Assembly (NCBI GenBank): GCA_965223855.1
Contig: CBDCXM010000009.1
Coordinates: 224,001 to 288,000 of the forward strand
Direction: 5' to 3'
From: Candidatus Multivoradales bacterium
GTDB lineage: Bacteria; Acidobacteriota; Thermoanaerobaculia; Multivoradales; JAHEKO01
DNA length: 64,000 nucleotides
Position numbers and translations under genes: made by a program. Every line of letters begins with the position of its first letter. Positions within the stretch are counted from its first letter, which is position 1. The notes under the pieces are model-generated. The model ran no database searches. It worked only from the letters and a program-made list of their open reading frames with translations, and had not been told where the DNA came from. Positions 29,239-44,138 of the stretch are shown here, piece after piece.

Positions 29239-29264
29239 CCCCTCCTCGTGGTAGAACTCCGCCG

Positions 29265-30491
29265 ATGAGCGAGACGCCGTTCCCAGCCGTCGCCGAGCAG
29301 CTCGCCGTGCTCCGGCGCGGCTTGGTCGACCTCGTCGACGAGGAACAGCTCGCCGCCAAACTCGAGGCGTCGCGAACAAGCGGACGACCACTGACGGTCA
29401 AGACCGGGTTCGACGCCTCGGCGCCGGATCTTCACCTCGGCCACTGCGTGCTGCTCGAGAAGATGCGCCAGTTCCAGCAACTGGGACATCGGGTGGTCTT
29501 CCTGATCGGCGACTTCACCGCCATGATCGGCGACCCTACGGGCAAGAAACTGACCCGGCCTCAGCTCAGCCGCGAGGAGGTTCTCGAGAACTCCGCGACC
29601 TACGAGCGCCAGGTCTGGAAGGTGCTCGATCGCGAGCACACGGTCGTCGACTACAACAGCAAGTGGCTCGACCCGCTCGGTTCCCAGGGGCTCATCCGAC
29701 TCGCCGGCAAGTATCCGCTCGCGCGCATGATGGAGCGCGACGACTTCCGCTCGCGCTGGGAGGCGCACCAGACGATCAGCCTTCACGAGCTCCTCTATCC
29801 GCTCGTCCAGGGGTACGACTCGGTCGCATTGGAGGCCGACGTCGAGCTCGGCGGTCACGATCAGATCTTCAACCTGCTCGTCGGGCGCACTCTGATGAAG
29901 GAGCACGGGCTCGATCCCCAGGTGGTGCTGACCGTGCCGCTGCTCGTCGGCATCGACGGCAGCGACAAGATGTCGAAGAGCCTCGGCAACGCCATCGGCG
30001 TCGAAGACCCACCCGGGGAGATGTACGGCCGCACGCTGTCGATCCCCGACGATCTGATGTGGGCCTGGTGGCTGCTTTTGACCGACCTCGGCGAAGGCGA
30101 GATCGATCGCCGCAGGTCGGAGGTAGCGGCCGGCGAGCTTCACCCCAAGTCGGTCAAACAGGAACTGGCCCGCCGCCTCGTGACGAGGTTCCACGACCGC
30201 GCCGCCGCCGAGGCCGCCGAACGCGAGTTCGAGGCCGTGTTTACTGCCGGCGGCGAGCCGGACGAGGTCGAGGAGCACTCGTTCGAAGGATCGACGCGCC
30301 TGCTGACAATCCTCACGGATACCGGACTCGCTTCCAGCAACGCAGAGGGGAAGCGACTGCTCAAGCAGGGGGCCGTATCGATCGACGGGACGAAGGTAAC
30401 CGACCCCGAGGCGCTCCATCTGGAGCTCGCCCCCGGCAGCTACCTGCTCAAGGTCGGAAAACGGCGCTTCGCCCGCGCCCTGGTGACGTGA
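29265..30491 (+). CDS. tyrS: Tyrosine--tRNA ligase
   Basis: GFDASAPDLHLGH, IGDPTGK, YPLVQGYDS, ELGGHDQIFN, KMSKS, C-terminal S4 domain. Confidence 0.97.
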   Translation: MSETPFPAVAEQLAVLRRGLVDLVDEEQLAAKLEASRTSGRPLTVKTGFDASAPDLHLGHCVLLEKMRQFQQLGHRVVFLIGDFTAMIGDPTGKKLTRPQLSREEVLENSATYERQVWKVLDREHTVVDYNSKWLDPLGSQGLIRLAGKYPLARMMERDDFRSRWEAHQTISLHELLYPLVQGYDSVALEADVELGGHDQIFNLLVGRTLMKEHGLDPQVVLTVPLLVGIDGSDKMSKSLGNAIGVEDPPGEMYGRTLSIPDDLMWAWWLLLTDLGEGEIDRRRSEVAAGELHPKSVKQELARRLVTRFHDRAAAEAAEREFEAVFTAGGEPDEVEEHSFEGSTRLLTILTDTGLASSNAEGKRLLKQGAVSIDGTKVTDPEALHLELAPGSYLLKVGKRRFARALVT

Positions 30492-31321
30492 CGGGCGAGA
30501 GGGCAGAGCGCTCTCACACCCAGGGCCGTCCCCTGCCCGACGAAGTCGGCTCCCTCCCGGCGGACGAGGCGATCCCCGCGCTCTTCGCGGAGCACGGCGG
30601 GCGGCTCTTCGGCCTCGGCCTGCGACTGTGCGGATCTCCCGAGGACGCCGAGGAGCTGGTGCAGGACATCTTCCTGACCGCCTTCAGAAGTTGGGATCAG
30701 TTCGAGGGTCGATCGAAGCCGACGACCTGGCTCTACACCATCGCCACCCGAGCCTGCATGCGCAAGCACCGCAAGCGGGCGGGCGAACCGGACACCCTCC
30801 AGTCCCTGGATGCGCTGGTTCCGCACGACGAGTCGACGGTCCCGGCGCTCGATGAGGCCGACCCGTTCGAACGACGGGTGCGCAGCGAGATTCAGGAGCG
30901 GATCGAGACGGCGTTGACGAGCGTGCCGCCGGACTTCCGCATGGCGCTGGTTCTCAAGGACATCGCCGAGCTCAGCGTCGCCGAGGTGGCGACCGTGCTC
31001 GGCATCAAGGAGGCGACGGTCAAGACACGGGTCTACCGGGCTCGGCTTGCGCTCAGAAAGGCACTGGCCGAGTCGCTCCCGCAGCGGCCGGTAGTCGACC
31101 CGGACGCGCCACCGATCTGTCGAGACCTCCTGCTGGCCAAGCTCGATGCACTCGACCGCGGGGTCGACTTCCCTCTCGCGAAGGAGCTGCTCTCCGACCG
31201 CTGCGGCTCGTTCTTCCGGACCCTCGACCTGACGCGCGAGGCGTGCAGGCGCATCGGCGAGGGGACGATCCCCTCGAAGATCCGCGAACGGCTCGGGACG
31301 GCGATCAGAGAGCCGGCCTGA
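30488..31321 (+). CDS. ECF RNA polymerase sigma factor with ~80-aa Cys-containing C-terminal extension
   Basis: Region 2 DAEELVQDIFL..FEGRSKPTTWLYTIA; region 4 LVLKDIAELSVAEVATVLGIKEATVKTRVYRARLALR; tail PICRDLL...SDRCGSF...EACRRI; GTGA overlap with tyrS. Confidence 0.9.
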   Translation: MTGERAERSHTQGRPLPDEVGSLPADEAIPALFAEHGGRLFGLGLRLCGSPEDAEELVQDIFLTAFRSWDQFEGRSKPTTWLYTIATRACMRKHRKRAGEPDTLQSLDALVPHDESTVPALDEADPFERRVRSEIQERIETALTSVPPDFRMALVLKDIAELSVAEVATVLGIKEATVKTRVYRARLALRKALAESLPQRPVVDPDAPPICRDLLLAKLDALDRGVDFPLAKELLSDRCGSFFRTLDLTREACRRIGEGTIPSKIRERLGTAIREPA

Positions 31322-31354
31322 ACGGCGCGGGCGCGACCGGCGCCTGCCGGCGGC

Positions 31355-32758
31355 TCAGGAAGCCTCCTCGTAGCGCGCGAAGGCGTCGTCGACGTAGCGC
31401 ACTTCGATCCCCTCGCGCGCCAGCAGGGCGGCTGCCGCCGCGGCTCGGGCGCCGCTCTTGCAGTGCACCAGCCAGGTGGCTTCGCGGTCCACCTCGTCGA
31501 CCCGGTCGAGCAAACGGGTGTGGGCGATGTTGGCGGCCCCGGGCACGTGGCCGGCGGCGTACTCCGACGCCCCTCGAACGTCGAGGACCCGATGCCGATC
31601 GTCTCCACGCAACCGCTCGACCGCCTCGAAGTCGATCACCGGCGTCGAGGTCAGGTCCGGCGCTCCGACGAGATCTTCGGGCGGCAGGAAACCGACGACC
31701 CGATCCAGGCCGATCCTCACGAGATCCCGCACCGCCTCCTCGAGGCGCCTTTCGTCGAGAACCAGGTAGATCTCCTCCTCCGGCCGCACATAGGAGCCCG
31801 CGACCGTCGGAAACGACTTGTTGAACGGAGCGTAGAGGGAGCCTGGAAGGTGTCCCTCCATGAACGCCGCGCGATCTCCGCGAGTGTCGAGCACGACAGC
31901 TCCTCTTTCGAGGGCGGCCGTCACCTCTGCGAGCGAGGTTCGGACCGGCGCCGGGAGTCCTCCGAGGAGCGGCGGCCCCTCCTTGTTGAGCTTCTTCATC
32001 CGCGCGAAGTAGAGCGGGGGCTCGGGCTGGCCCTCGAGGATCGACGCGACGAACGACTCCCGGCCCCTTCGCGCCGCGTCGATGGCCGCATTGGACCTGG
32101 TCTCGTAGCCGACGGTCGACATCGGAACCGCACCGAGCGCCTTGCCACAGGCACTCCCTGCGCCATGCGCGGGCCACACCTGCAGGAACTCGGGCAGCTC
32201 GAGGAAGAGCGACAGGGAGTCGAAGAGCCGCTCGGCCGACGGCTCCATCGCGCCCGCGACGCCGGCGGCCGATTCGAGCAGGTCGGGCCGTCCGAGGTCG
32301 CCCACGAACACGAAATCACCGGTCGCGATGCCGATCGGCTCGCTCATTCCCGATCCGTGATCGGTGACGGTGAAACTCAGATGCTCAGGGGTGTGCCCCG
32401 GTGTATGGACCGCCTGGATCTCGATGTTCCCGACACGGAACACGTCACCGTGATGCAGAAGGGTGACGTCGTAGTCGCTCCCCTTCGCCCACTCGTACTT
32501 CCAGTCGGCGTCTCCCTCGTCGGAGAGATAGAGGTGCGCGCCGGTCTGCTCTGCGAGCTCGCGGGCTCCGGAGAGGAAATCTGCATGGATGTGAGTCTCC
32601 GTCACCGCCGTGAGCGTGAGGCCTTCGGCGCGGACGATCTCGAGGTAACGGTCGCTGTCTCGCTCGGGATCGATCAGCAGCGCCTCCCCGGTCCGCTGGC
32701 AGCCGACGAGGTAGGCGTATTGCGCGAGCTTCGGGTCGTAGATCTGTCGAAAAAGCAT
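31355..32758 (-). CDS. Persulfide dioxygenase-rhodanese fusion (CstB/Blh-like MBL plus two rhodanese domains)
   Basis: ETHIHADFLSG, HTPGHTPEH, GDFVFVGDLGRPDL, PAHGAGSACGK, GHLPGS, GHVPGA, HCKSGAR. Confidence 0.88.
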   Translation of the reverse strand: MLFRQIYDPKLAQYAYLVGCQRTGEALLIDPERDSDRYLEIVRAEGLTLTAVTETHIHADFLSGARELAEQTGAHLYLSDEGDADWKYEWAKGSDYDVTLLHHGDVFRVGNIEIQAVHTPGHTPEHLSFTVTDHGSGMSEPIGIATGDFVFVGDLGRPDLLESAAGVAGAMEPSAERLFDSLSLFLELPEFLQVWPAHGAGSACGKALGAVPMSTVGYETRSNAAIDAARRGRESFVASILEGQPEPPLYFARMKKLNKEGPPLLGGLPAPVRTSLAEVTAALERGAVVLDTRGDRAAFMEGHLPGSLYAPFNKSFPTVAGSYVRPEEEIYLVLDERRLEEAVRDLVRIGLDRVVGFLPPEDLVGAPDLTSTPVIDFEAVERLRGDDRHRVLDVRGASEYAAGHVPGAANIAHTRLLDRVDEVDREATWLVHCKSGARAAAAAALLAREGIEVRYVDDAFARYEEAS

Positions 32759-32839
32759 GTGGAGTCTCCGTGGGTCTTGTTGGGATCGTTCAGAAGCAGG
32801 TCGTTGTCGGGAGTTGGAAGGGGTCGTCGGGTCGTGAGA

Positions 32840-33280
32840 TCAATGAGGCAGCGACGGGCGAAGCAGAGCGTAGACCCAGGTTCCAGCCAGCGCGCTGACG
32901 AGCAGGACCCCCGCGCCCGCCACACCGTTGCCGAGCAGCGCGAAGATCGGGCCGGGGCAGGCGCCCGCCAGGCCCCATCCGAGGCCGAAGAGGCTGCCGC
33001 CGACGGCGTAACGGATGCCACGGCCCAGGACCTTGGGCGGCACCTCGATCGGATCGCCCGCGAGATCGGTGCCGACTCTCCTCTTGACGAGGGCGACGCC
33101 GACGGAGGCCACAGCGACGGCCGAAACGATCACCCCGTACATGTGGAAACTGTGAAAGCGGAACATCTCCTGGATCCGGTACCAGGAGATGATCTGCGAC
33201 TGCGTCGCCGTGACTCCGAACAGCACTCCCAGCAACAGGTACGGCACGAGGTTCGTCACCGTCGGTAGCTGCCGGTTCAT
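32840..33280 (-). CDS. YeeE/YedE (DUF6691-like) sulfur transport membrane protein
   Basis: SWYRIQEMFRFHSFHMYG, GGSLFGLGWGLAGACPGP. Confidence 0.88.
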   Translation of the reverse strand: MNRQLPTVTNLVPYLLLGVLFGVTATQSQIISWYRIQEMFRFHSFHMYGVIVSAVAVASVGVALVKRRVGTDLAGDPIEVPPKVLGRGIRYAVGGSLFGLGWGLAGACPGPIFALLGNGVAGAGVLLVSALAGTWVYALLRPSLPH

Positions 33281-33837
33281 CGCAGCACCCACGGCAGCAG
33301 GACATGGGTCGCCACGAGCCCGCCGGCGAAGAAGCCGAGCACTGCCAGCAGCGAGGCGGGTTGGCGATCGGCGAGTCCGGAGATCGCGTGGCCGGACGTG
33401 CAACCTCCGGCGTAGCGGGCGCCGAAGCCGACGAGGAACCCTCCGCCCACCAGCAGTACGAGACTCGGGCCTGTCCCGAGAGAGCCCGCTCCGAAGATTT
33501 CCGCCGGCACGAGACCCGTCGGGGCGCCCAGCCCCAGCTCGGTCAGCGCGCTCGTCGTGCGCGCATCCAACGCGACCTCCGCCGGCCCGAGCCAGGTCGC
33601 CGCGACCCAACCGCCGGCAACGATGCCGAGTGCGAATACGAGATTCCACCCTCCGCTGCCCCACCAGTCATAGCGCAGAAACGACGGCTTCCTCGGAATC
33701 ACGGCCGCGCACAGATGACGCAGGTTCGACGAGATCCCGAACTGGCGACCGCCGACGATGAGCAGCATCGGCACCAGAGCACCGATGATCGGTCCGGCCA
33801 CGTACCACGGCCAGGGTTCTTTGAGCGTTTCGATCAT
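33277..33837 (-). CDS. YeeE/YedE thiosulfate-transporter-family membrane protein
   Basis: PWPWYVAGP, FGISSNLRHLCA, GGFLVGFGARYAGGCTSGHAISGL. Confidence 0.9.
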   Translation of the reverse strand: MIETLKEPWPWYVAGPIIGALVPMLLIVGGRQFGISSNLRHLCAAVIPRKPSFLRYDWWGSGGWNLVFALGIVAGGWVAATWLGPAEVALDARTTSALTELGLGAPTGLVPAEIFGAGSLGTGPSLVLLVGGGFLVGFGARYAGGCTSGHAISGLADRQPASLLAVLGFFAGGLVATHVLLPWVLR

Positions 33838-35609
33838 GAAGTTCCTCCCTGAGCTCTGAGAGAGCCCGGTCGCTGCTTCGCAACCAGGGTATCGACCGCC
33901 TCCTGGGTGCTGAGAAAAATCCGTCCTGGTGTCATCGACTCGACGAAGGAAACCCGCTGAAGCCGGTCCATGACCGGACCCTTGACCTCCGCGAGATGAA
34001 ACGTGACTCCCGCACTGTCGAGCTCGACCCTCAAGGTCTCCAGAGTCTCGAGGGCGCTGCCGTCGATGAAGTTGACCGCACTGGCGATCAATACGAAGTC
34101 GCGCAGGCGCGGGCGCTCCGCAACTGCCCGTAGAACCTCGTCTTCGAGATTCCGCGCGTTGGCGAAGTAGAGGCTCTCGTCGACCCTCACCAGCAGCAGC
34201 TCGGGCCAGGTCTCCACCTGATGTCGAAGGACGTTGCGATAGTGCTCGCTGCCGGCGACGCGACCCACCACCGCCATGTGAGGCTGCGTCGTTCTCCAGA
34301 CGTGGAGCGCCACCGCCACCACCGCGCCGATCACGATCCCGGCTTCGACGCCGAGCACGAGCACGGCTGCGAACGTCGTCGTGAAAGCCGCGCCGTCCGC
34401 TCGGCTGTACTTCCAGGCGCGCACCGCCGCTCGCCAGTCGACGAGTTGGGCGACCGCAACGACGATGATCGCCGCCAGTGCGGCCTTCGGCAGATGGTGG
34501 AAGGCTGGAGTCATCCAAATCACCGCCACCGCGACGAGCGCAGCCGTGACCAGCGCCGCCAGGCCCGACCGGGCGCCGGCGGTGAAGTTCACCATCGAGC
34601 GGCTGAAGCCGCCGGTCACGGGATAGCCGCCGGTGAACGCAGCACCGAGGTTGGCCACGCCGAGCGCCAGCAGCTCCTGGTTCGCCCGCACCCGCTCGCG
34701 GCGCTTCGCGGCCAGCACCCTCGCAATGGCAAAGCTCTCGAGGAAGCCGATGAAGCAGATCGCGACCGCCGTCGGCAGCAGCACTCGAAGCGCCGCCGCG
34801 TCGAGCGGCGGTCGGCCGACGGCGGGAAGCCCCTGGGGGATGACGCCGACGACCGCCACGGAGGCTCTCTCATCGAGCGACATGGCAGCGGTCAGTGCCG
34901 CGGTCACGCCAACTGCGACGAAAGGTCCCGTCTTCGCCAGCGGTGCGGCCCAACTCTCGCTCGCGCCCGCACGCACCAGCAATGGGCCCAGCCGGCTGCG
35001 GAAGAAGAGGAGGATCGACAACGCCGTGAGCGTCAGCAGCACGGTGGTCGGGTTGACCTGTCCGAGACGCTCGACCACCGCTTGCACGGTCTCGAGGAAT
35101 CCCTCGGGCCGCCCGATCTCGAGGCCGAACAGGTGCCTCAGCTGGCTGCCGGCGATCACCAGTGCCGCAGCGGAGGTGAAACCGGCAAGAACGGCATGAC
35201 TGAGGAAGTTGACGAGGAAACCCATGCGGGCCAGACCCATCGCCGCCTGAAGCAAGCCGACCATCAGCGCGAGAGTCAGGGCGTATCCGACGAACGCCTC
35301 GGTCCCCGGTTCGGCGAGCTCCGACACGCCGGTCGCCACCAGCAGAGAGACGATCGCCACCGGCCCGACAGCGAGCGACGTGCTGGTGCCGAAGATCGCG
35401 TAGAGCGCAACCGGGACGATGCTGGCGTAGAGCCCCACCTGGGCCGGCAGCCCGGCCAGCAACGCATAGGCCATCGCCTGCGGCACCAGCATGATCGCCA
35501 CCACGAGCCCGGCAACCAGGTCGCTGGGCAGATCGCCACGGCGATAGGAGGGCAGCCACGAAGCGGCGGGCAGCCAGCGTGCGAGACCGGTGCTCGAAGG
35601 GGTCGCCAA
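33834..35609 (-). CDS. sulP: SulP family anion transporter with STAS domain
   Basis: DLVAGLVVAIMLVPQAMAYALLAGLP..GLY, NQELLALG, GGYPVTGGFSRS, RVDESLYFANA, VNFIDGSA. Confidence 0.93.
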   Translation of the reverse strand: MATPSSTGLARWLPAASWLPSYRRGDLPSDLVAGLVVAIMLVPQAMAYALLAGLPAQVGLYASIVPVALYAIFGTSTSLAVGPVAIVSLLVATGVSELAEPGTEAFVGYALTLALMVGLLQAAMGLARMGFLVNFLSHAVLAGFTSAAALVIAGSQLRHLFGLEIGRPEGFLETVQAVVERLGQVNPTTVLLTLTALSILLFFRSRLGPLLVRAGASESWAAPLAKTGPFVAVGVTAALTAAMSLDERASVAVVGVIPQGLPAVGRPPLDAAALRVLLPTAVAICFIGFLESFAIARVLAAKRRERVRANQELLALGVANLGAAFTGGYPVTGGFSRSMVNFTAGARSGLAALVTAALVAVAVIWMTPAFHHLPKAALAAIIVVAVAQLVDWRAAVRAWKYSRADGAAFTTTFAAVLVLGVEAGIVIGAVVAVALHVWRTTQPHMAVVGRVAGSEHYRNVLRHQVETWPELLLVRVDESLYFANARNLEDEVLRAVAERPRLRDFVLIASAVNFIDGSALETLETLRVELDSAGVTFHLAEVKGPVMDRLQRVSFVESMTPGRIFLSTQEAVDTLVAKQRPGSLRAQGGTS

Positions 35610-35611
35610 GC

Positions 35612-35719
35612 TCAGTCAACCCCCGAAGGGCAAAGACTCGGCTCAGCGGTGAAATGGCCTCCGGGCATCGGGACTCCAGGCAGAGTAGAGGCCGGGTGGC
35701 TGTTCGTCGCGATGCTCAT
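35612..35719 (-). CDS. Putative 35-aa small ORF upstream of sulP
   Basis: ATG just downstream of the leftward ECF-type promoter; stop 2 nt before the sulP TTG; no family recognised. Confidence 0.35.
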   Translation of the reverse strand: MSIATNSHPASTLPGVPMPGGHFTAEPSLCPSGVD

Positions 35720-35738
35720 CGTGTCGCCTGCTAACGGA

Positions 35739-35769
35739 TGAGAGACACGGGCCGCCCTCGAGGTTCCCG
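35739..35769 (-). promoter_or_regulatory. ECF-type promoter (GGAACC-N15-GTCTCT) facing sulP-yeeE-yeeE-pdo
   Basis: Minus strand CGGGAACCTCG-agggcggc-CCGTGTCTCTCA, same arms and spacing as the plus-strand copy. Confidence 0.75.
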
Positions 35770-35777
35770 CCGATACC

Positions 35778-35808
35778 CGGGAACCTCGGACGGCTTCCGT
35801 GTCTCTCA
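35778..35808 (+). promoter_or_regulatory. ECF-type promoter (GGAACC-N15-GTCTCT) facing sqr
   Basis: CGGGAACCTCG-gacggctt-CCGTGTCTCTCA, 57 nt upstream of the sqr ATG. Confidence 0.75.
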
Positions 35809-35865
35809 CCTTCGAGACGCCATGACAGCAGCCGCTGTTCTCGCCAATCGAAGGAGACACGTCAC

Positions 35866-37068
35866 ATGAGCACTCACCATCACAGGATCGTCATCGTCGG
35901 CGGGGGCAACGCCGGCCTCTCGGTGGCCGCCCAACTGCTGCGCAAGGACCGCTCGCTCGACATCGCGATCCTCGATCCCGCCGAGCAGCACTACTACCAG
36001 CCGGCCTGGACTCTGGTCGGCGGGGGCGACTTCGACGTACGTGACACGGTCCGCCCCCAGAAGGACGTGATGCCGGAAGGGGTCACCTGGATTCGAGAGG
36101 CGGTGGAGACCTTCCAGCCGGAGGAGAAGACCGTGACCACCACCTCGGGCTCGTCGGTCGGCTACGACCTGCTGGTGGCCTGCCCCGGCATCCAGCTCAA
36201 CTGGGACGCGATTCCGGGACTCACCGACACCCTCGGACGCAACGGCGTCTGCAGCAACTACGGATTCGACCTCGCCCCCTACACTCATGAGTGCATCCGG
36301 AAGTTCGAAGGGGGCACCGCTCTCTTCACCCAGCCGGGAACTCCCATCAAGTGCGGTGGCGCGCCGCAGAAGATCATGTACCTCGCCGCCGACAACTTCC
36401 GGCGGCGTTCGCTCGGTGACGCCGCATCCATCGAGTTCTGCACCGCCGGCGGTGTCATCTTCGGCGTCGAGAAGTACGCCAGGCGCCTGCTCGAGGTCTG
36501 CGAACGCTACGGCATCGAGCTTCGCTTCCTTCACAACCTGGTCGCGATCGACGGCCCCGGCAAGACGGCCACCTTCGAAGTCACCGACACTGCGACCGGC
36601 GAGAAGACCGGGGTGACGAAGTCCTTCGACATGATCCACGTCTGCCCGCCACAGTCGGCTCCCGACTTCGTGCGCGAGAGCCCGCTCGCGGGCGAGGCAG
36701 GCTGGATCGATGTCGACAAAGCGACGTTGCAGCACAGCCGTTTCCCCGACGTCTTCGCGCTGGGCGACGCCACGAACACGCCGAACGCCAAGACCGGAGC
36801 CGCCATCCGCAAGCAGGCGCCGGTGCTGGTCGCCAACCTGCTGAGCCACCTGAGGTCGGAGCCGTTGACGGCGACCTACGGGGGCTACGGCTCCTGCCCT
36901 CTCGTCACCGGCTACGGCAGGCTCATCCTGGCCGAGTTCGACTACGCGAACGAGCCGGCCGAGACCTTCCCGTTCGATCAGAGCAAGGAGCGCTGGTCGA
37001 TGTACCAGCTCAAGAAGCGAGTGCTCCCGTGGCTCTACTGGAACAAGATTCTGAAGGGGACCGCCTGA
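35866..37068 (+). CDS. sqr: Sulfide:quinone oxidoreductase (type II-like)
   Basis: AAGGAG RBS; IVGGGNAG, HYYQPAWTLVGGG, PIKCGGAPQK, FALGD, AKTGAAIRKQAP, YGSCPLVTG, ETFPFDQSKER. Confidence 0.9.
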   Translation: MSTHHHRIVIVGGGNAGLSVAAQLLRKDRSLDIAILDPAEQHYYQPAWTLVGGGDFDVRDTVRPQKDVMPEGVTWIREAVETFQPEEKTVTTTSGSSVGYDLLVACPGIQLNWDAIPGLTDTLGRNGVCSNYGFDLAPYTHECIRKFEGGTALFTQPGTPIKCGGAPQKIMYLAADNFRRRSLGDAASIEFCTAGGVIFGVEKYARRLLEVCERYGIELRFLHNLVAIDGPGKTATFEVTDTATGEKTGVTKSFDMIHVCPPQSAPDFVRESPLAGEAGWIDVDKATLQHSRFPDVFALGDATNTPNAKTGAAIRKQAPVLVANLLSHLRSEPLTATYGGYGSCPLVTGYGRLILAEFDYANEPAETFPFDQSKERWSMYQLKKRVLPWLYWNKILKGTA

Positions 37069-37077
37069 CCACGCCCG

Positions 37078-37779
37078 TCAGGGCACAGTCGCCGACCAGG
37101 CACCGGTGTCGCCGGACTCGAAGCCGTCGTCGAACACCTCGCACGGGGCGTTCGCGGTCCCCTGCGTCGGCGGCATGCTCTGGAAGTCGCGACCCAGGGT
37201 AAGGAGACCTCCCCCACCCTCGGCGCCACAGTAGGCGAGGCTCTCGCCCATCGCCGCCGGCTCCGTGAAGTCGTACTGCGGAGGAGGACCGACTGCAGTC
37301 TCAGTCCAGATCCCCTTGTCGGCGGCGACGTCGGAGCGGCCGACGTCGTCGGCGGTGTTGTATTGCAGGAAGTCGACCATCGCCGTGCTCGATCCGAAGG
37401 TGCTGACCGTGTAGAGACCCACATCGGCGGCCACGTCGTCGAGGTCGTTGAGATCGCCTGCTCCGGGAGCATCGATCTGCAGCACCACCCTCTCCCCCGG
37501 AGAGAGAACCGTGTCGCCGACCAGCACCGTGAGCTCCGAGATCTGCCCGTAGTCGAAGCGCGAGCACAGCCACCAGCCACCGACATCGACGTCGCCGGTG
37601 TCGCCCAGGTTGGCGATCTCGATCCAGTCCTCGTTCAGGCCACCGAGGTAGAAGACCTCGGTGATGAAGATGTCCTCGGGCGTACCACCCAGCGTCGCCG
37701 ACGACGACGGCGTCGCCGGCAGGAAGAGGATCAGCAAAGCGAGCGGAGCGACACGGCGGACAACGGGTCGGCATCTCAT
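37078..37779 (-). CDS. Secreted lamin-tail-domain-like protein ending VFDDGFESGDTGAWSATVP
   Basis: Signal peptide; IFITEVFY...DWIEIANLG...DVGGWWL, VLSPGE, PTQG.AN; terminal DGFESGD tag; ATG 37779. Confidence 0.78.
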   Translation of the reverse strand: MRCRPVVRRVAPLALLILFLPATPSSSATLGGTPEDIFITEVFYLGGLNEDWIEIANLGDTGDVDVGGWWLCSRFDYGQISELTVLVGDTVLSPGERVVLQIDAPGAGDLNDLDDVAADVGLYTVSTFGSSTAMVDFLQYNTADDVGRSDVAADKGIWTETAVGPPPQYDFTEPAAMGESLAYCGAEGGGGLLTLGRDFQSMPPTQGTANAPCEVFDDGFESGDTGAWSATVP

Positions 37780-37792
37780 GGCGCGAATCCTC

Positions 37793-38821
37793 TCACGCGC
37801 CGGGAAACACGCGATAGAGCCTCTCGCGCAGCTCCACCTCGACTCGCGAGCCGACGGGAAGGGTGTCGCCGGTGAGTACCCGCGCCCGGACCGTTTCGCC
37901 GCTCGACAGGACGACTCGATCGAGAGCGTCGTGGCCGAAGAACTCGCGCCCCTCGAGCACTCCCGCCACCGCGTGCCCCGAGCCCGCCAGGCGCAGACGC
38001 ACATCCTCCGGCCTGAGGAGCAGGCGGCCGGCTCCGTCGGGTGCGTCGCAGCGCCCCCTGCCGAGGGCGCTCTCGAACTCTCCACCCGCCACCATGCAGT
38101 CGAAGAGCTCGCCCGACCGCAGGAACTCGGCGACCGCCTCGCTCGCGGGGCGGGCGTAGATCGTCTCCGGGCTGGCGACCTGCAGCACTCTGCCCTCGAC
38201 CATCACCGCTACCGCGCCGGCGACGGCGAGCGCCTCCTCCCGGTCATGGGTGACGAGCACAGCGTTGGTGCCGGTGCGGCGCAGCACCTCCCTGACCTCG
38301 AGGCGCAGGTCCTCTCGCAGACCGGGGTCGAGACCGGCGAACGGCTCGTCGAAGAGCACAAGTCTCGGTTCGGGAGCCAGGGCCCGTGCCAGCGCCACCC
38401 TCTGCTGCTGGCCCCCGGAAAGCTGATCGGGGAACCGCTCCCGGGTATCCGCGAGCCTGACGAGGTCGAGAAGCTCCGCCGCCCGTGCCTCGCCGGCTCG
38501 CGATCCGCGCACACCGTAGCGGACGTTCTCCCACACCGTGAGATGCGGGAAGAGCGCCCCCTGCTGAAACACCATGCCGACGTCGCGCTTCTCAGGAGGG
38601 ACGAAGGCTCCCTCGCCCACCACGGTCCGGCCGGCGATCCGCACCGTGCCCCGGCGCGGCGTCTCGAAGCCGGCGATCGTTCGCAGCAAAGTCGTCTTGC
38701 CGCATCCGCTCTCTCCGACCAGGGCCAGCAGCCCGCTGTCGAAGACCATGTCGACGTCGCGGACAGCCACCGCTTCGCCGTAGGAGACCGTCAGCCCCTC
38801 GATCTCCAGAACGACGCTCAT
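37793..38821 (-). CDS. fbpC: Fe3+ ABC transporter ATP-binding protein (FbpC-like)
   Basis: GESGCGKTT, LSGGQQQRVALARAL, DEPF, C-terminal TOBE-like region; ATGA overlap. Confidence 0.85.
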   Translation of the reverse strand: MSVVLEIEGLTVSYGEAVAVRDVDMVFDSGLLALVGESGCGKTTLLRTIAGFETPRRGTVRIAGRTVVGEGAFVPPEKRDVGMVFQQGALFPHLTVWENVRYGVRGSRAGEARAAELLDLVRLADTRERFPDQLSGGQQQRVALARALAPEPRLVLFDEPFAGLDPGLREDLRLEVREVLRRTGTNAVLVTHDREEALAVAGAVAVMVEGRVLQVASPETIYARPASEAVAEFLRSGELFDCMVAGGEFESALGRGRCDAPDGAGRLLLRPEDVRLRLAGSGHAVAGVLEGREFFGHDALDRVVLSSGETVRARVLTGDTLPVGSRVEVELRERLYRVFPGA

Positions 38822-40395
38822 CGCGACTCCCCGTCGACCCCGAGTACGGGGCGGATCATGAGGAAGTAGACCGGCACGATCGAAGCCAGAAGGAGGCACA
38901 GCGCAGGGAGCGCCGCCTGAGAGTAGATGCCCTCCGCGGTCGCGCTCCAGACCCTCGTCGCCAGCGTCTCGAAGCCGGTCGGGCGCAAGATCAAGGTTGC
39001 CGGGAGTTCCTTCATGGTCGTCAGGAAGACCAGGCCGGCTCCGGCGGCGAGTCCCGGCCCGATGAGAGGCAGCGTCACCGTGCGAAACACCCGCCGCCGG
39101 CCGGCGCCGAGACTGCGCGCCGCCTCCTCGAAGGCCGGAGCCACCGAGGCGAGAGCGCTGCGGGCGGCGCCGAGCGCCTGCGGCAGGAAACGGCAGACGT
39201 AGGCGGCGATCAGGAGGACGACCGTCTGGTAGAGCGGCTCGGCGTGCCGGGTGGCGAAGAAGACGAGGCTCAGCGAGATCACCATCCCCGGGAGGGCATA
39301 CCCCGACTGCGCGAGCCGTTCGACCGCTCTCGCCCGACGCCCCGGATAGCGAACCGACCAGACGGCGAGCGGCAGCGCCAGCGCTGTGGCCGCAAGAGCT
39401 GCCAGGCCGGCGACGCCGAGCGAGTTCGCGATCGACTCTCCGACCCGGCCGAGCGGATTGCCGGTCACCAGGGCGCGCACCGCCCAGTGGGCGACCACGC
39501 CGAGGGGAACGGCGAGCGTCACAAGATTGAGCAACGTCAGAGCTCCGAGGACCGGCCACTTCCAGCGCCCGAGCGCCACCCTGTGGGTCGCGCGGAACGG
39601 CCGGCTGCGGGTCGCCGGCAGGCGGCGCATCCAGCGCGCCTGGACTGCCATCACGAGCAGCGTCAGCGCCACCAGCACGAGTGCCAGCGAGGCGGCGGCC
39701 GTGCGATCGAAGAGGCCGCGGTAGGCGTTGTAGATCGACAGAGTGAAGGTGTTGAATCGGGCGATCGACACCGCCCCGAAGTCGGACAGCACGTAGAGCG
39801 CCACCAGCAACCCTCCGGCCGCGAGCGGCCCCCTGAGCTGAGGGAGGACGGCGCGCCGGAACGCTCCCCACGGGCCGCTGCCGAGAGACCGCGCGCTCTC
39901 CTCGACCGCCGGGTCGAGCTGGCGGAGCCCCGCCACCAGCAGCAGGAAGAGGTAGGGGTAGGTGAAGAGGGCGAGCGCCGCGAGGGCTCCCCCGTAGCCG
40001 TAGACCACCGCCGGTAGCCGTTCGACCCCGAGCAGGCTCTGCAGATGGCCGCGGGGACCGAAGAACACGACCAGGGCGAACGCTGCGACGTAGGACGGGA
40101 ACACCAGCGGCAGCGCGCCGGCGAGCGCCCACCAGCGCCGGCCGGGCAGATCGGTGCGCACCACGAGCCAGGCATAGGGCAGGGCGATCGCCATCGTCGT
40201 CACCACGACGCCGGCGATGAGCGCCAGCGTCCGCGCCGCCAGCTCGACGGTCCGCGGCGTGGCGACGACCGCCGTGAAACCCTGCCAGCCGCCGCCCAAG
40301 GCCCGGAGTACCAGGTAGACGAGCGGCAGCGCCATCGCCATGCCGATCAGGCTGGCGACGGCGATCAGCAGCGGAGGAGCCGACCGCCCTGCCAA
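38818..40395 (-). CDS. fbpB: Fe3+ ABC transporter permease (FbpB-like)
   Basis: Two EAA loops (EESARSLG, EEAARSLG), LSDFGAV, MKELPATLIL. Confidence 0.87.
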   Translation of the reverse strand: MAGRSAPPLLIAVASLIGMAMALPLVYLVLRALGGGWQGFTAVVATPRTVELAARTLALIAGVVVTTMAIALPYAWLVVRTDLPGRRWWALAGALPLVFPSYVAAFALVVFFGPRGHLQSLLGVERLPAVVYGYGGALAALALFTYPYLFLLLVAGLRQLDPAVEESARSLGSGPWGAFRRAVLPQLRGPLAAGGLLVALYVLSDFGAVSIARFNTFTLSIYNAYRGLFDRTAAASLALVLVALTLLVMAVQARWMRRLPATRSRPFRATHRVALGRWKWPVLGALTLLNLVTLAVPLGVVAHWAVRALVTGNPLGRVGESIANSLGVAGLAALAATALALPLAVWSVRYPGRRARAVERLAQSGYALPGMVISLSLVFFATRHAEPLYQTVVLLIAAYVCRFLPQALGAARSALASVAPAFEEAARSLGAGRRRVFRTVTLPLIGPGLAAGAGLVFLTTMKELPATLILRPTGFETLATRVWSATAEGIYSQAALPALCLLLASIVPVYFLMIRPVLGVDGESR

Positions 40396-40399
40396 ACCG

Positions 40400-41431
40400 T
40401 CACTCGACGAGGCCGCTGGCGGTCAGCACCGCAAGCGTCGGCTCGAGAAGACCGGCTGCGGTCGCGAAATCGACGTCCGGCGTCGGCACCGTGTCGATCG
40501 GCACGAGCCCGACGCTCGGCGCCACGCCCGCAGCGATCGGATACTCCATCGTCTCGTTGCCGAAGTAGGTCTGCGCCTCCTCCGAAACGAGGAAGCCGAG
40601 GAGCTGCTGTGCCTCGGCCCGGTCGCTCAGGACCGCTCCGCCGGCCAGGTTGACGTAGTTCGAGGCCGCCCCTTCCGGCATGTAGAAGATCCCCAGCGGC
40701 GCTTCGGGGTCCTCGGCCAGCGCACGGGCCACGTAGTAGTGGTTCACCAGTCCGAACTCGACCTCGCCGTCGGCCACCGCCTGCACGATGGCGCTGTTCT
40801 TCGGGTAGCGCTGCGCGTCGTTGGCCACCATCCCGGCCAGCAGCGCGTCGAGCGCCTCGGCTCCTTCGACGGCGTGGTAGACCGCCATGTGCGCCTGGAA
40901 CGAGCCGTTGGTGGGCGGCACGCCATAGCGCCCGGAGAAACGCTCGTCGACAATCTCCTCGAGGCGCTGCGGCAGCTCGTCGGTGGTCATCGATTCGGTG
41001 TTGTAGACCACCGCGCGCGCCCGTCCCGAGAGGCCGATCCAGCGATTCCCGGCATCGCGGAACGCCGCCGGCACCTGAGAAGCGATCTCTGCGCCGATCG
41101 GTTGCAGCAGTCCGGCCTGGGCCAGCGCTCCGAGCGCCGCCGCGTCCTGCGACAGGAAGACGTCGGCCGGTGTACGCTCACCCTCCTCGAGCAGCGTCGC
41201 GGTCATCTCCGAGGTCTCGCCGTAGCGCACCTCGACTTCGATGCCCGAGCTCGCGATGAAGCGCTCGAGCAACGGACCGATCAGCGATTCGTTGCGACCG
41301 GAGTAGACGACCAGCGGCTCCGCCTCGCCGGCGGCCGGCGGCTCCGGATCGGGGCTGCCGCCGCAGGCGGCGGTCAGCAGCAGGACGGCGGCGAGTGTCG
41401 CTCGACCCGTGTTCGAGAGTGAAACGTTCAT
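40400..41431 (-). CDS. fbpA: Fe3+ ABC transporter substrate-binding lipoprotein (FbpA/FutA-like)
   Basis: Lipobox LTAAC; VVYSGR, PTNGSFQ, GLVNHYY (tandem Tyr iron ligands), EYP. Confidence 0.88.
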   Translation of the reverse strand: MNVSLSNTGRATLAAVLLLTAACGGSPDPEPPAAGEAEPLVVYSGRNESLIGPLLERFIASSGIEVEVRYGETSEMTATLLEEGERTPADVFLSQDAAALGALAQAGLLQPIGAEIASQVPAAFRDAGNRWIGLSGRARAVVYNTESMTTDELPQRLEEIVDERFSGRYGVPPTNGSFQAHMAVYHAVEGAEALDALLAGMVANDAQRYPKNSAIVQAVADGEVEFGLVNHYYVARALAEDPEAPLGIFYMPEGAASNYVNLAGGAVLSDRAEAQQLLGFLVSEEAQTYFGNETMEYPIAAGVAPSVGLVPIDTVPTPDVDFATAAGLLEPTLAVLTASGLVE

Positions 41432-43659
41432 CTGGCGTTGCCTCCGAAATCGACGGAAAGGCCGACGATCACGCTGCGAGGCAGGCCCGGCCGCAAGCCG
41501 GCCGGCCGCCGCGCCGCCACGTAGACCTCGTCGGTCGCGTTGAGGAGCTGGGTGAAGACCTCCCAGCGATCGAACAGTGTCTTCTCGAGTCGAAGATCGA
41601 CGAGGGTGCGAGCCTCCAGCCGCTCCCCTGGCGGGATCGCGCCGCTCCCGGCGCGGGTTCGCACGTCGGAGGTGTGATCGACATCGACGAAGAGGCCGAA
41701 GCCCGAGCGCTCGTAGCCGAAGCGCGCGTGGAGTCGATGCTCCGGCAGATAGGGCAGCTCGTCCCCGGCCTCCACCAGCGGCGCCCAGTCGGCAAAGTCG
41801 GACTCGAACGTCGAGTCGAACTCGCCGCGGGTGAAGGTGTAGGTGACGTCGAGCGGCATCACGGCCTGGGCCGAGCGCAACCGCGTGCCGAATCCGGCCT
41901 CGAGACCGAAGATCGTGGCGGCACCGCCGTTGAACTGATCTCCCGTGCCGCCGCCACCGCCCGAGGTGGTGTCGGTTCCCAGCAGATTCTCGTAGTCGCT
42001 GAAGAAGGCGGTCAGCTCCCCGCGGCTGCGGTCGCCCGCGGCCCGGTAGCCGAGCTCGAAGTTCACGCTCTCCTCGGCGTCCACCTCCTCGGTCGAACTC
42101 GGGCCGGGCGGCGAGAACCCGCGATGAACGCCGACGAACACCTGCCGCTCGTCGTCGATCGCGTAGCTGACGCCCATCCCGGGCAGCACCTCGGTGAGCG
42201 AGTTGGTGCGCGTCGCGAGCGCGAAGCCGGAGCGAGTCGGGTCCTCGCGGCCGTAGTCGAGCCGCTCGAGATCGATCGACTCGACCCGCACGCCGGGGGT
42301 CAGCGTCCAGGAGCCGATCCGGATGGTGTCCTGCACGAACGCCGCCATCGCTTCGGCGCCGGCGACCCGGTTCGCATGGCTTCCCGGCGCACCGGCGCTC
42401 GTGAAGATCCGCTCGCGCCCGAGCATCCGGTAGCTGTCCTCTTCCTGAAAGCGATCCTCCTCGTCCTCGTGAAGCCGGAGGCCGAACTCGAGCTCGTGCG
42501 CCGAGCGCCCACGTTCCAGGTCGACGCCGAAGACCGCCTGCACCCCGGTCGAGTAGTAGTCGCGCCGGTTGTTGCGCACGGCGAGGGCTTCTGCTCCGCT
42601 GTCCCGCTCGCCGCGAAGGACCGCGAGCTCGTCCGCATAGAGCCCGGGAGAGGCGAGCACAGCAGCCACGCCGACACCGTCCACCTTCTCGAGCTTGTGC
42701 CAGTTGCGGAAGAAGTCGTTGCGGTAGGCGGTCACGGTGAGGCGGTGTCGATCGCTCGGCCGCAGCTCGTAGCTGAGCTGGAACTGTTCGTGCTCGGCCC
42801 GGATCTCGTCGCCCGCCGACGAGGCGTAGCGGCGGTAGGGATCCGCCAGGAAGTCCCCGACCGTCAATCCGAGATAGGTCTCGTCGCCGTCCTGCTCGGT
42901 CCGCCCCACCTTGATCTCGAGCGCCTGGTACCGGCGAGCCTCGGGATCGGTGGTCACACGGAACTTCCCGAGATAGTCGGAGAGCTGGTAGCCGGTCGGC
43001 CCGCCGCCATCGAGCCGCTTGAAGCCGTCGTGGCGCTGATCGAGGGCCTCGACCAGCCAGCCGAAGCGCTCCCCTCCCTCACCGGCTCGCGCCCGCACGA
43101 GCTGATGGCCGTCGCTCCCGCCCGTCAGTTCAAGCCGTCCCTCGCGCGCCGCCGGAATCGAGGTCGACAGGTAGTTGATCGAGCCGCCGTTGGTGTAGGG
43201 CCCCTGGCGGATGGCGCTCGACCCCTTGAGGATCTCGAACCCCTCCATCCGGCCGGCGGTCGGCGAGTAGTAGGCCGACGGCGCGGCGTAGGGGGCCGGC
43301 GCGATGAGCACCCCGTCCTCGAGCATCGTGATCTTCGAGCTGCGCTCGACTCCGGTGCCGCGAATCCCGATGTTCGGCCGCAGGCCGAAGCCGTCCTCCT
43401 CCTGAACGCTGATACCCGGGACCTGCTGGAGGATCCGATGCACGTCCTGGTAGCCCTGCCGCTCCAGTGTCTCGGCGTCGATGACGTGGGCCGAACCGGG
43501 CAGCTCGTCGAGCTCGGTCACGGCGGCGACGATCGACAGCTCCTCGAACAGCCGGTATCCGCTGCCACCCTTGTCGGATGGTGCCTCGGTCTCGCTCGCG
43601 CCGGCGATCGCCGGCAGCAGGCAGGTGAGCGCCCACAGGCGCACGGTTCGAACGTTCAT
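41428..43659 (-). CDS. TonB-dependent receptor (FecA-like)
   Basis: AAGGAG RBS; EEDGFGLRPNIGIRG, EDGVLIAPAPY, EILKGSSAIRQGP, RPGLPRS; C-terminal LSVDF. Confidence 0.9.
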   Translation of the reverse strand: MNVRTVRLWALTCLLPAIAGASETEAPSDKGGSGYRLFEELSIVAAVTELDELPGSAHVIDAETLERQGYQDVHRILQQVPGISVQEEDGFGLRPNIGIRGTGVERSSKITMLEDGVLIAPAPYAAPSAYYSPTAGRMEGFEILKGSSAIRQGPYTNGGSINYLSTSIPAAREGRLELTGGSDGHQLVRARAGEGGERFGWLVEALDQRHDGFKRLDGGGPTGYQLSDYLGKFRVTTDPEARRYQALEIKVGRTEQDGDETYLGLTVGDFLADPYRRYASSAGDEIRAEHEQFQLSYELRPSDRHRLTVTAYRNDFFRNWHKLEKVDGVGVAAVLASPGLYADELAVLRGERDSGAEALAVRNNRRDYYSTGVQAVFGVDLERGRSAHELEFGLRLHEDEEDRFQEEDSYRMLGRERIFTSAGAPGSHANRVAGAEAMAAFVQDTIRIGSWTLTPGVRVESIDLERLDYGREDPTRSGFALATRTNSLTEVLPGMGVSYAIDDERQVFVGVHRGFSPPGPSSTEEVDAEESVNFELGYRAAGDRSRGELTAFFSDYENLLGTDTTSGGGGGTGDQFNGGAATIFGLEAGFGTRLRSAQAVMPLDVTYTFTRGEFDSTFESDFADWAPLVEAGDELPYLPEHRLHARFGYERSGFGLFVDVDHTSDVRTRAGSGAIPPGERLEARTLVDLRLEKTLFDRWEVFTQLLNATDEVYVAARRPAGLRPGLPRSVIVGLSVDFGGNAR

Positions 43660-43673
43660 CGAGGCGTTCTCCT

Positions 43674-44138
43674 TCAACTCGGCGCCGGCGGGGCCTCTCG
43701 AGCCTCCCGCGCCCGACGGCAGGTCAGGCACCGCCCGACGACCTGCACCGAAAGATCTTCAGGGTCGAATCCGTGCGCGGCGCAGAGTTCCCGCAGCGAG
43801 TCACGCACCTCGCGATGGAGGTACTCGACCAGCCGGCCGCACTCGCGGCACACCATGTGGTCGTGGTCCATCCCCTCGTGGAGATGCTCGTAGAGCACTC
43901 TGTGATTGCCGAGGCGCACCTTGCGCACCAGGCCGCAGTCCGCCAGCAGATCGAGATTGCGATAGACCGAAGCTCTCGAGACCCGCAGCCCGTTGCGACC
44001 GATCGCCTCGTGCAGACGATCGGCGTCGATGTGCTCGTGGTGGAGGAAGATCTCCTCGAACACCGCCCGACGGGTCGGCGTCATCCGCAACCCGTGGTCG
44101 CGGACGTAGCTCTCGAACTGTTGCCGTTCCTGTTGCAA
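43674..44138 (-). CDS. fur: Fur family transcriptional regulator
   Basis: GLRMTPTRRAV, HIDAD, VSRASVYRNL, HDHMVCRECG, GRCLTC. Confidence 0.9.
   Translation of the reverse strand: MQQERQQFESYVRDHGLRMTPTRRAVFEEIFLHHEHIDADRLHEAIGRNGLRVSRASVYRNLDLLADCGLVRKVRLGNHRVLYEHLHEGMDHDHMVCRECGRLVEYLHREVRDSLRELCAAHGFDPEDLSVQVVGRCLTCRRAREAREAPPAPS

Follow-up and report, generated by a model that had tools for sequence, protein, structure and literature searches.

The window examined here, that is, the whole stretch of DNA that was analysed, comprises 64,000 nucleotides from Candidatus Multivoradales bacterium of the phylum Acidobacteriota (GenBank assembly GCA_965223855.1, contig CBDCXM010000009.1, positions 224,001 to 288,000; C9:224001-288000 in our contig numbering). 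It contains a sulfur gene island whose two arms diverge from a 70-bp element, which is made up of two oppositely oriented copies of one two-block motif (Table 1). The rightward arm is a single gene, sqr, for a sulfide:quinone oxidoreductase (SQR)-like protein, and the leftward arm consists of four tightly packed genes in the order sulP, yeeE, yedE and pdo/rhodanese, the last of which encodes a fusion of a persulfide dioxygenase (PDO)-like protein with a rhodanese. A gene for a sigma factor of the extracytoplasmic function (ECF) type, whose product carries a cysteine-bearing C-terminal extension, is found 4.4 kb from the twin element. We herein describe the twin element, the occurrence of its motif together with the sigma factor across genomes, and the genes that lie under the motif.

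Table 1. Coordinates of the twin element and of the island genes, counted from the first nucleotide of the window
Feature	Coordinates	Strand	Details
sqr promoter (predicted)	35778..35808	+	-35 block CGGGAACCTCG, 35778-35788; -10 block CCGTGTCTCTCA, 35797-35808; 34.6 bits
Promoter of the sulP-yeeE-yedE-pdo/rhodanese operon (predicted)	35739..35769	-	same two blocks; 34.6 bits
Gap between the arms	35770..35777		CCGATACC, 8 nt
sqr, FAD-dependent SQR-like protein, 400 aa	35866..37068	+	Pfam Pyr_redox_2, 4.2e-13
sulP, SulP-family anion permease with STAS domain, 591 aa, operon gene 1	33834..35609	-	Pfam Sulfate_transp, 7e-106; STAS, 2.5e-16
YeeE/YedE-type sulfur transport, first half-size gene, 186 aa	33277..33837	-	Pfam Sulf_transp, 1.8e-12; ATG overlaps sulP stop
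YeeE/YedE-type (DUF6691), second half-size gene, 146 aa	32840..33280	-	DUF6691, 2.4e-10; Sulf_transp, 6.5e-8; ATG overlaps stop of first half-gene
PDO-like metallo-beta-lactamase fold + rhodanese fusion, 467 aa, last operon gene	31355..32758	-	Lactamase_B, 5.5e-15; Rhodanese, 1.2e-19
ECF sigma factor, 277 aa	30488..31321	+	Pfam Sigma70_r2, 5.8e-19; Sigma70_r4_2, 1.1e-13; C-terminal extension

When compared with NCBIfam models, the sulP product scores 466 bits with TIGR00815, over its cut-off. The best match of the sqr product is type III SQR (8.5e-66, 222.5 bits), under that model's cut-off of 525, and the PDO-rhodanese fusion matches GloB and Blh, both under their cut-offs.

The twin element

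Each copy, read on its own strand, consists of an 11-nt block, an 8-nt spacer and a 12-nt block. The plus-strand copy is CGGGAACCTCG GACGGCTT CCGTGTCTCTCA, and the reverse complement of the minus-strand copy is CGGGAACCTCG AGGGCGGC CCGTGTCTCTCA, so that the two blocks are the same in both copies and the spacers are of equal length but unlike sequence. A repeat search of the window returned the same pair, as 31-nt arms that are 77% complementary and 8 nt apart; the distance from one GGGAACC box to the other is 10 nt. A preliminary description had reported copies with identical arms and equal spacing on opposite strands, 8 nt apart, and this is borne out by direct reading, by script and by the repeat search. 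Both copies show the layout GGAAC-N16-GTC, which is common among ECF promoters.

The twin element is far beyond chance, which does not credibly explain it. The pattern GGAACC-N14-16-GTCTC matches the window twice, whereas shuffled sequence gave 0.25 matches on average and one of 100 shuffles reached two. Across the genome (9 contigs, 4,520,844 bases, 68% G+C), a search for the two-block motif that tolerated up to two mismatches per block found the twin and one poor match, which used all four mismatches. Furthermore, a weight matrix derived from 14 sites gave both window copies its maximum possible score of 34.6 bits; the next-best site in the genome reached 17.8 bits, and three weak sites (17.8, 16.8 and 16.3 bits) fall within long open frames with high G+C content at third codon positions (GC3). 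A third GGAACC-N12-CGTGTCTC site at C9:1200292-1200317 (-) was taken as chance, because it lies within the 3' part of a TonB-receptor-like open frame. The weight-matrix scan of the 4.5-Mb genome yielded no further regulon member, and judged by the motif, the two units, sqr and the sulP operon, appear to be the whole regulon in this organism.

Occurrence of the motif with the sigma factor

Orthologs of the sigma factor, including its extension, were found in 29 of 61 related genomes (E <=5.2e-70, 47-66% identity), with a clear break before the next matches (E >=4.5e-32). In the same 61 genomes, the pattern GGAACC-N13-15-TGYCTCNCA was matched 60 times and a reversed-pattern control 5 times. Of the 60, 54 lie in sigma-positive genomes, where 23 of the 29 carry one or more, and the remaining six are spread over 5 of the 32 sigma-negative genomes. 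As a background, 151 genomes with a completeness of at least 90% were sampled evenly across the phylum, and 16 candidates were scored in each. Among these candidates, a sigma ortholog at E <=1e-45 was present in two genomes, G000 and G019; in the remaining 149, the pattern occurs 14 times and the control 10 times, which is chance level. These tallies take in one row each from the unpublished genomes G005 and G082, on which nothing else here depends.

The neighbourhoods of sigma orthologs, taken as 28 stretches no longer than 20 kb, have the motif as single, directional copies. In L033 and L050, for example, it is placed directly upstream of PDO-rhodanese genes, and in other cases just past the sigma stop. 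A profile search with the ortholog alignment extended the survey beyond close relatives: the best 80 of 572 stretches encoding a sigma relative were taken as loci, and their titles name Acidobacteriota/Thermoanaerobaculia, Planctomycetota/Phycisphaerales, Gemmatimonadota, Eiseniibacteriota and others, although some of these loci may coincide with genomes of the first set, and the two sets overlap. The weight matrix found 28 sites of at least 18 bits in 24 of the 80 loci and none in the reversed sequences. By our reading of the coordinates, 17 of these 28 sites share the strand of the sigma match and start 22-147 nt beyond its end. On this evidence the sigma family is, as predicted from its matches, widespread in Acidobacteriota, Planctomycetota and Gemmatimonadota.

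Architecture of the motif and predicted starts

The 86 unique sites of at least 20 bits share the consensus cGGGAACCt-N11-CGTG(T/C)CTCTCA, in which the A, A and C of GGGAACC are invariant or almost so. The spacer is 11 nt in 72 sites and 10 nt in 14, and its columns are without information; with the N11 spacer, the consensus equals GGAAC-N16-GTC. Both window copies fit this cross-phylum consensus perfectly, which is why they are identical. Columns within the matrix are biased by the method by which the sites were found, and the flanking columns are free of that bias. In these unscored flanks, the base before GGGAACC is C in 53 of 72 sites, and after the final A, position +6 is a pyrimidine in 48 of 72 and +7 a purine in 66 of 72. 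Over +1 to +10, the flank has T or C at +6 and is purine-rich from +3 to +10.

The pyrimidine-purine signal at +6/+7 may be the signature of a start site or of the initial transcribed region. The starts would then be predicted at about 35812-35815 (+) and 35732-35735 (-), with the +6/+7 signal favouring 35814-35815 (+) and 35732 (-), which differ by no more than a few bases from the positions guessed earlier from the sequence. A search of sequencing records for this DNA listed four entries, all kept as contigs and from one study, and no RNA run. The ATG of sqr (35866) is 57 nt past the motif and the TTG of sulP (35609) 129 nt past it, leaving a predicted sulP leader of about 125 nt. Most sites, both in relatives and in other phyla, likewise face an open reading frame (ORF) that begins about 0-130 nt downstream; ORF starts were chosen by a simple rule, and individual distances from site to start are approximate.

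Two features of the leaders are recorded here. In the sqr leader there is a second inverted repeat (35806-35857; 24-nt arms, 71% complementary), whose 3' arm spans the GAAGGAGA ribosome-binding region; the fold of the leader RNA at 35812-35880 was no better than that of shuffles (z = -0.59). In the predicted sulP leader, a 35-codon ORF (35612-35719 on the minus strand, ATG at 35719) stops 2 nt before the sulP TTG and has one Cys. Its GC3 of about 0.69 is below that of real genes here, and it has no counterpart in the leader of the same-genus genome G001; it is probably non-coding.

Genes under the motif

The target of each site was defined as the first plausible ORF starting no more than 400 nt away, with the highest GC3 preferred, and was scanned against Pfam. 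For the 60 pattern sites, the first gene encodes a thioredoxin in 12 cases, the outer-membrane efflux protein of resistance-nodulation-division (RND) systems in 10, a YgaP-like membrane protein in five, and a cytochrome c, di-haem peroxidase or cytochrome bd in four. PDO-rhodanese and SQR-like proteins occur twice each, and DUF302, DUF442-type (BLH_phosphatase) and SulP proteins once each; seven further sites precede other Pfam families and 15 have no family or no ORF. Among the cross-phylum sites, 27 of the 28 were annotated, the one left out having the same 30-nt sequence as the sigma-adjacent site in L054. Here PDO-rhodanese is the commonest first gene (seven sites), followed by YeeE/YedE (four), DUF442-type and thioredoxin (two each), and, with one each, DUF302, TauE, rhodanese-YgaP, YgaP, peroxiredoxin, efflux and FtrD-like; five sites have none.

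Cytochrome bd is a sulfide-resistant oxidase and would suit a sulfide response. The motif precedes genes for cytochrome bd subunit I, di-haem cytochrome c peroxidase and c-type cytochromes at L067:1592-1621 (+) and in L076, L069 and L094. In other bacteria, sensors of reactive sulfur species (RSS) control SQR, PDO, sulfurtransferases, TauE and YeeE/YedE, as stated in the available part of a review (PMC13467558). The predicted targets of the motif are thus the gene set of dedicated RSS sensors, plus thiol-redox and efflux functions.

The preliminary description had also proposed that the motif would serve to find the regulon. It does define a regulon, which in relatives is rich and coherent and within this genome trivially small, no further member having come to light.

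The sigma factor and its extension

The core of the sigma factor resembles SigW, AlgU, SigE and RpoE in sequence and fold. Its best NCBIfam match is PRK11922 (122 bits, under the cut-off of 204), and its nearest paralog in the genome is 35% identical. After sigma2 and sigma4 follows an extension of about 80 aa (approximately 31070-31318) with Cys211, Cys239 and Cys253. In 24 orthologs these three cysteines are invariant, as are Cys48 and Cys90 in sigma2. Arg238-Cys239 is also invariant, and the residue that follows it varies. The window sigma, that of G001 and one other are without the 'DH' that precedes Cys211 in most orthologs.

AlphaFold models the extension as three helices, with a predicted local distance difference test score (pLDDT) of 85-91 (87 for the extension alone). 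In the model of the full protein, the core deviates by a root-mean-square deviation (rmsd) of 7.7-11 Å from anti-sigma-bound ECF structures and of about 22 Å from polymerase-bound ones; this superposition is weak evidence, because the predicted template modelling score (pTM) is 0.36. When core (20-197) and extension (203-277) were submitted to complex prediction as separate chains, they scored 0.48 against 0.00 for the best control, with contact agreement between runs of at least 81% and a partner pLDDT of at least 62. This was classed as weak support: the mark concerned is reached by 116 of 157 solved complexes and by 2 of 215 mismatched pairs, and at scores of 0.60 or less by only 18 of those 157 and by both mismatches.

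Structural comparison gave no clear match for the fold of the extension. Foldseek on the extension model returned nothing at E <=0.001, and a wide VIA-align search gave generic helical matches (best Z 5.2), with the anti-sigma chain 4nqw_B at rank 40 (Z 3.9, rmsd 10.6). A search for the extension as a stand-alone protein among short proteins, word-based and therefore liable to miss distant forms, found only two fragments, on contigs of 510 and 569 nt. By eye, a C...C-x2-C arrangement gave the extension the look of a zinc anti-sigma domain (ZAS, zf-HC2). The extension is not detectably such a domain, being unsupported by Pfam, by a zf-HC2 scan, by hhalign and by sequence comparison with solved structures. 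The orthologs have C-x2-C without the His of H-x3-C-x2-C, and the window protein has S-x2-C. The one sign in its favour is a weak lead, the best Atlas feature match of the extension, which is to a zf-HC2 cluster at 0.80.

Surroundings of the island

Apart from the sigma gene, Pfam identified neither an anti-sigma gene nor any regulator gene among the 15 ORFs at 29145-43731, those of the CsoR, ArsR and Fis types included. No sigma70-like promoter was predicted in 31000-37300. The same interval has three terminator-like sites, which equals the shuffle expectation, and none of them lies between pdo and the sigma gene. These two genes converge, with 33 nt between their stops (31321-31355), and the same layout is seen in L031 and L106, where the gap is about 11 nt. 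In two other loci (L044:9584-9613 and L055:2263-2291) a motif copy is aimed into the 3' end of the sigma gene. Sigma-driven antisense transcription over the sigma gene could give negative feedback.

On its other side, the GTG start of the sigma gene overlaps the stop of tyrS (GTGA, 30488-30491), which suggests that it is co-transcribed and coupled with this housekeeping tRNA synthetase gene. The linkage appears peculiar to this genome, because tblastn found no tyrS in the 28 loci of sigma orthologs. To the right of sqr, at 37078-43731, there follow an ORF with a lamin-tail domain, an ABC transporter permease and binding protein, and a TonB-dependent receptor. These genes seem to be outside the island, because none bears the motif.

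Interpretation

Taking the conserved boxes, the fixed spacer and the orientation to genes across relatives together with the way in which the motif tracks the sigma ortholog from genome to genome, often 22-147 nt past its stop, we consider it very probable that the element consists of two divergent ECF-type promoters read by the neighbouring Cys-tailed sigma factor. Both proposals had been made in the preliminary description and have stood up to the comparison. Polymerase with this sigma would read GGGAACCT as the -35 element and G(T/C)CTCTCA, 16 nt past AAC, as the -10 region, and transcription would begin a few bases downstream in each direction. The rightward unit would be sqr, and the leftward unit sulP, the two YeeE/YedE half-genes and the PDO-rhodanese fusion. 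That the two promoters fire in a mutually exclusive manner, as was once suggested, is pure conjecture; tight packing of paired promoters is not a conserved feature.

As to the signal, the family probably regulates the detoxification of sulfide and persulfide as a one-component, Cys-based system. No partner anti-sigma gene adjoins the sigma gene, and one hypothesis is that the extension keeps the sigma factor inactive in cis. Sulfide-derived RSS, or a related thiol stress, would modify the thiols of the extension and release the sigma factor, which would in turn switch on sulfide oxidation and S-oxyanion transport, with thioredoxin and efflux genes added in relatives. Such cis-autoinhibition, relieved through thiol modification in response to sulfide or RSS, is a tentative proposal whose chances we judge to be slightly less than even. 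The further step, by which the family would be a one-component, Cys-based sensor of sulfide-derived RSS and a new class beside the CsoR, ArsR and Fis types, is more tentative still.

Several observations weigh against these views. For the assignment of the promoters to this sigma, the scores within the boxes are biased upward, because the matrix was built from sites picked by pattern. The genome holds many ECF-like candidates (49 in a first look), and because there are dozens of them, the pairing of sigma and promoter rests on adjacency and co-occurrence only. Many ECF sigma factors have a copy of their promoter upstream of their own gene, which is common and not universal; apart from the twin, no site of at least 9 bits was found in 29000-35700 that could be such an autoregulatory copy. 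Six of the 29 sigma-positive genomes have no strict pattern match. On the other side, the sigma-negative genomes G021 (61% complete) and G024 (88% complete) hold convincing sites, where the sigma gene may have gone unassembled. The counts are given without a test statistic, because related genomes are not independent.

Other observations count against the sensing part. Cys236 is near-invariant in the orthologs and is Ser in the window sigma, in that of G001 and in one other; these Ser236 proteins without DH may represent variant sensor chemistry within the family. Pfam recognised no family in the extension, even at E = 10. A whole-genome zf-HC2 scan marked six other places and not the sigma extension, and hhalign of the extension against four ZAS domains from its own genome gave a probability of 3%. 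Compared by sequence with solved structures, the extension had only one irrelevant match (E = 0.37). In addition, thioredoxin and efflux targets suit general thiol stress as well as they suit sulfide.

Alternative explanations

The last of these points leads to the alternative that survives best, in which promoters and sigma are the same and the signal is another one, namely general disulfide, oxidative or electrophile stress or a metal, as in SigR-RsrA or CorE. It overlaps with our own proposal. The thioredoxin and RND efflux genes that head 12 and 10 of the 60 pattern sites would agree with it, as would the peroxiredoxin and cytochrome c peroxidase genes, and among Cys-rich ECF extensions, those investigated so far are metal sensors (CorE and CorE2, in the available portions of PMC7826278 and PMC8999054). 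Against it, the commonest sigma-adjacent targets across phyla are sulfide and persulfide genes (PDO-rhodanese in seven, YeeE/YedE in four and DUF442-type in two of 27 sites, plus single cases of TauE, DUF302, rhodanese-YgaP and YgaP), and the whole apparent regulon of this genome is sqr and an operon for sulfur transport and PDO. Gene classes of this kind belong to dedicated RSS sensors in the review cited above (PMC13467558, as far as available). We regard a non-sulfur signal as rather unlikely.

It is improbable that the promoters are read by another ECF sigma and that the Cys-tailed neighbour is a bystander. GGAAC/GTC-type boxes are common to many ECF groups, the genome has its dozens of ECF-like candidates, and the neighbour is not autoregulated through the motif, all of which leave room for such a reader. 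However, genomes with the ortholog hold about twenty times as many copies of the motif each as those without it (54 matches over 29 genomes, compared with 14 over 149), it is located directly past the sigma stop in loci of several phyla, and the nearest paralog in the genome is far from a close copy, at the 35% identity given above.

Very improbable is the reading of the inverted repeat as a single palindromic operator, at which a dimeric or tetrameric persulfide sensor of the CstR, SqrR/BigR or FisR type would control both units. The 31-nt arms do form an inverted repeat, and persulfide sensors control sqr/pdo operons of like content, often from divergent intergenic regions (PMC13467558, available part). 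Nevertheless, most copies of the motif in relatives are solitary, directional and gene-facing. Eight back-to-back pairs were found, with gaps between the GGGAACC boxes of 9, 10 (the window), 24, 25, 28, 41, 61 and 85 nt. The dyad is not conserved, because the gaps of the pairs vary in this way and most copies stand alone. In the same-genus genome G001, whose sqr is 67% identical, both promoters are kept between sqr and a SulP-like gene (24.3 and 20.1 bits, the weaker facing the SulP-like gene) at a gap of 25 nt against 10 here; the promoter sites align and the remaining intergenic DNA has diverged. The motif follows the ECF sigma gene instead of a gene for a CsoR-, ArsR- or Fis-type protein, none of which was found among the 15 ORFs around the island, and each arm is built of two boxes around a free 11-nt spacer, as is usual in promoters but not in half-sites. 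In these predicted promoters, sequence and internal spacing are conserved and pairing is not. It had been proposed beforehand that relatives keeping the pairing but not the sequence and spacing would refute the promoter reading; the opposite came out, with boxes and spacing kept (N11 in 72 and N10 in 14 of 86 sites) and gaps that vary. A second tight twin, in L127:2904-2970 (title Acidobacteriota), has a 9-nt gap and spacers that are identical as well (TTTCCCCGCGGC), and is flanked by an FtrD-like gene and a 68-aa ORF without a family. The tight gap of about 10 nt recurs in this one case and is not general.

A purely structural element, that is, a DNA cruciform or an RNA hairpin such as a bidirectional terminator or a repeat element, is scarcely credible: the single-stranded DNA of the region does fold strongly (-31 kcal/mol, z = -7.5 against shuffles) and Rfam gives two matches to hairpin-shaped miRNA precursors, but a terminator has no role here because the site lies between diverging gene starts, neither transcript would hold both arms if the promoters fire outward, relatives keep the sequence and not the pairing, and the repeat occurs nowhere else in the genome. 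The strong DNA hairpin is better seen as a by-product, because two consensus promoters face away from each other. The two Rfam matches, the only ones in 35400-36000, are far under the gathering score and mirror the hairpin.

Significance

Understood as two divergent promoters of the Cys-tailed sigma factor, the element supplies a sharp promoter motif that ties an uncharacterised, multi-phylum sigma family to the sulfide/persulfide gene set. With this motif, regulons can be predicted in phyla that have been little studied, among them Acidobacteriota and Planctomycetota, and sigma and promoter would make a compact orthogonal pair that is naturally bidirectional. If the proposal is true, the window twin would be a minimal complete regulon of one sigma factor and two consensus promoters, spanning sulfide oxidation, persulfide removal and S-oxyanion transport, and a possible function would be at hand for orphan ECF29-like sigma factors. 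It also provides a testable hypothesis for what a Cys-bearing ECF extension senses. Should the sensing idea fail, an ordinary but well-documented ECF regulon would remain.

Comparison with known systems

Promoters of the E. coli sigmaE type have the consensus GGAACTT-N16-TCAAA/TCTGA. They are similar to the motif described here (GGAACCT-N17-TCTCA in the same notation) in being bipartite, with AAC in the -35 element and a TC-containing core in the -10 element. They differ in the -10 block, which here measures 11 nt and is rich in G/C, and regulon and control mechanism are unrelated.

Cys-gated ECF sigma factors are known from SigR-RsrA and SigH-RshA (ECF12). The SigR consensus is GGAAT-N18-GTT, and its sensor is a separate zinc-binding anti-sigma factor, whereas in the present family the Cys domain is fused, is not detectably zf-HC2, and the core targets are sulfide and persulfide enzymes. 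The ECF12 systems share with it the gating by cysteines and the presence of thioredoxin among the targets (available text of PMC7826278). One-component organisation, on the other hand, is shared with CorE/CorE2 (ECF238, former ECF44), ECF41 and ECF42, which according to published accounts have no anti-sigma factor and carry a fused C-terminal modulating domain. CorE resembles our sigma factor further in having a Cys-rich domain plus a Cys in the core, and is unlike it in having an extension of about 20-38 aa, in responding to Cu, Cd or Zn and in having metal genes under its control. In ECF41 and ECF42 the domains are SnoaL or TPR, whereas the extension here has neither a Pfam family nor a sequence match among solved structures.

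The closest described group is ECF29, to which we liken the family by published description. In the accessible part of the classification by Casas-Pastor et al. (2021, PMC7826278), the promoter predicted for ECF29 has GGGAACCT as its -35 and CATCCAAT as its -10 element; the group is without an anti-sigma factor, and none of its members has been characterised. For its Sinorhizobium meliloti representative RpoE8, the corresponding text of Lang et al. (2018, PMC6180224) gives -35/-10 elements of GGGAAC/GCATCCAA and a perfect motif in the 77-nt gap right past the rpoE8 stop codon; RpoE8 overexpressed 126-fold activated no target. A sigma factor that stays silent when overexpressed would suit autoinhibition. 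As far as these sources describe it, ECF29 thus agrees with the family here in the predicted -35 octamer, in being without an anti-sigma factor, in a C-terminal extension with Arg-Cys (RCE/D in ECF29, Arg238-Cys239 here) and, for RpoE8, in the succession of sigma, promoter and next gene that is seen in many of our loci. The same sources set it apart by its -10, (G)CATCCAA(T) as opposed to CGTG(T/C)CTCTCA, by an extension of about 30 aa as opposed to about 80 aa with up to four Cys, and by its occurrence in Proteobacteria and Bacteroidetes, with no conserved neighbourhood and with autoregulation. The present family is found in Acidobacteriota, Planctomycetota and Gemmatimonadota, adjoins sulfur genes and is not autoregulated in this genome.

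In function, the nearest systems are CstR of the CsoR family, SqrR/BigR of the ArsR family and the sigma54 activator FisR. They control the same genes, namely SQR, PDO, sulfurtransferases, TauE and YeeE/YedE, and a cysteine pair is their usual sensor (PMC13467558, available part). In that part, this 2026 review names the CsoR, ArsR and Fis superfamilies as RSS sensors and no sigma factor. Titles and abstracts of the literature on ECF sigma factors with persulfide or sulfane sulfur, and the available text of ECF reviews, yielded no sigma-type sulfide sensor, and the words 'rhodanese', 'sulfide' and 'DUF302' are absent from the accessible supplement of PMC7826278, although a numbered group for the family may exist. 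The known sensors work through operators, as repressors or, in one case, as an enhancer-binding protein, whereas here the regulator would be the promoter-recognition subunit itself. If the family does sense RSS, it could conceivably be the first RSS-responsive regulator in which the sensor and the promoter-recognition subunit are one and the same protein.

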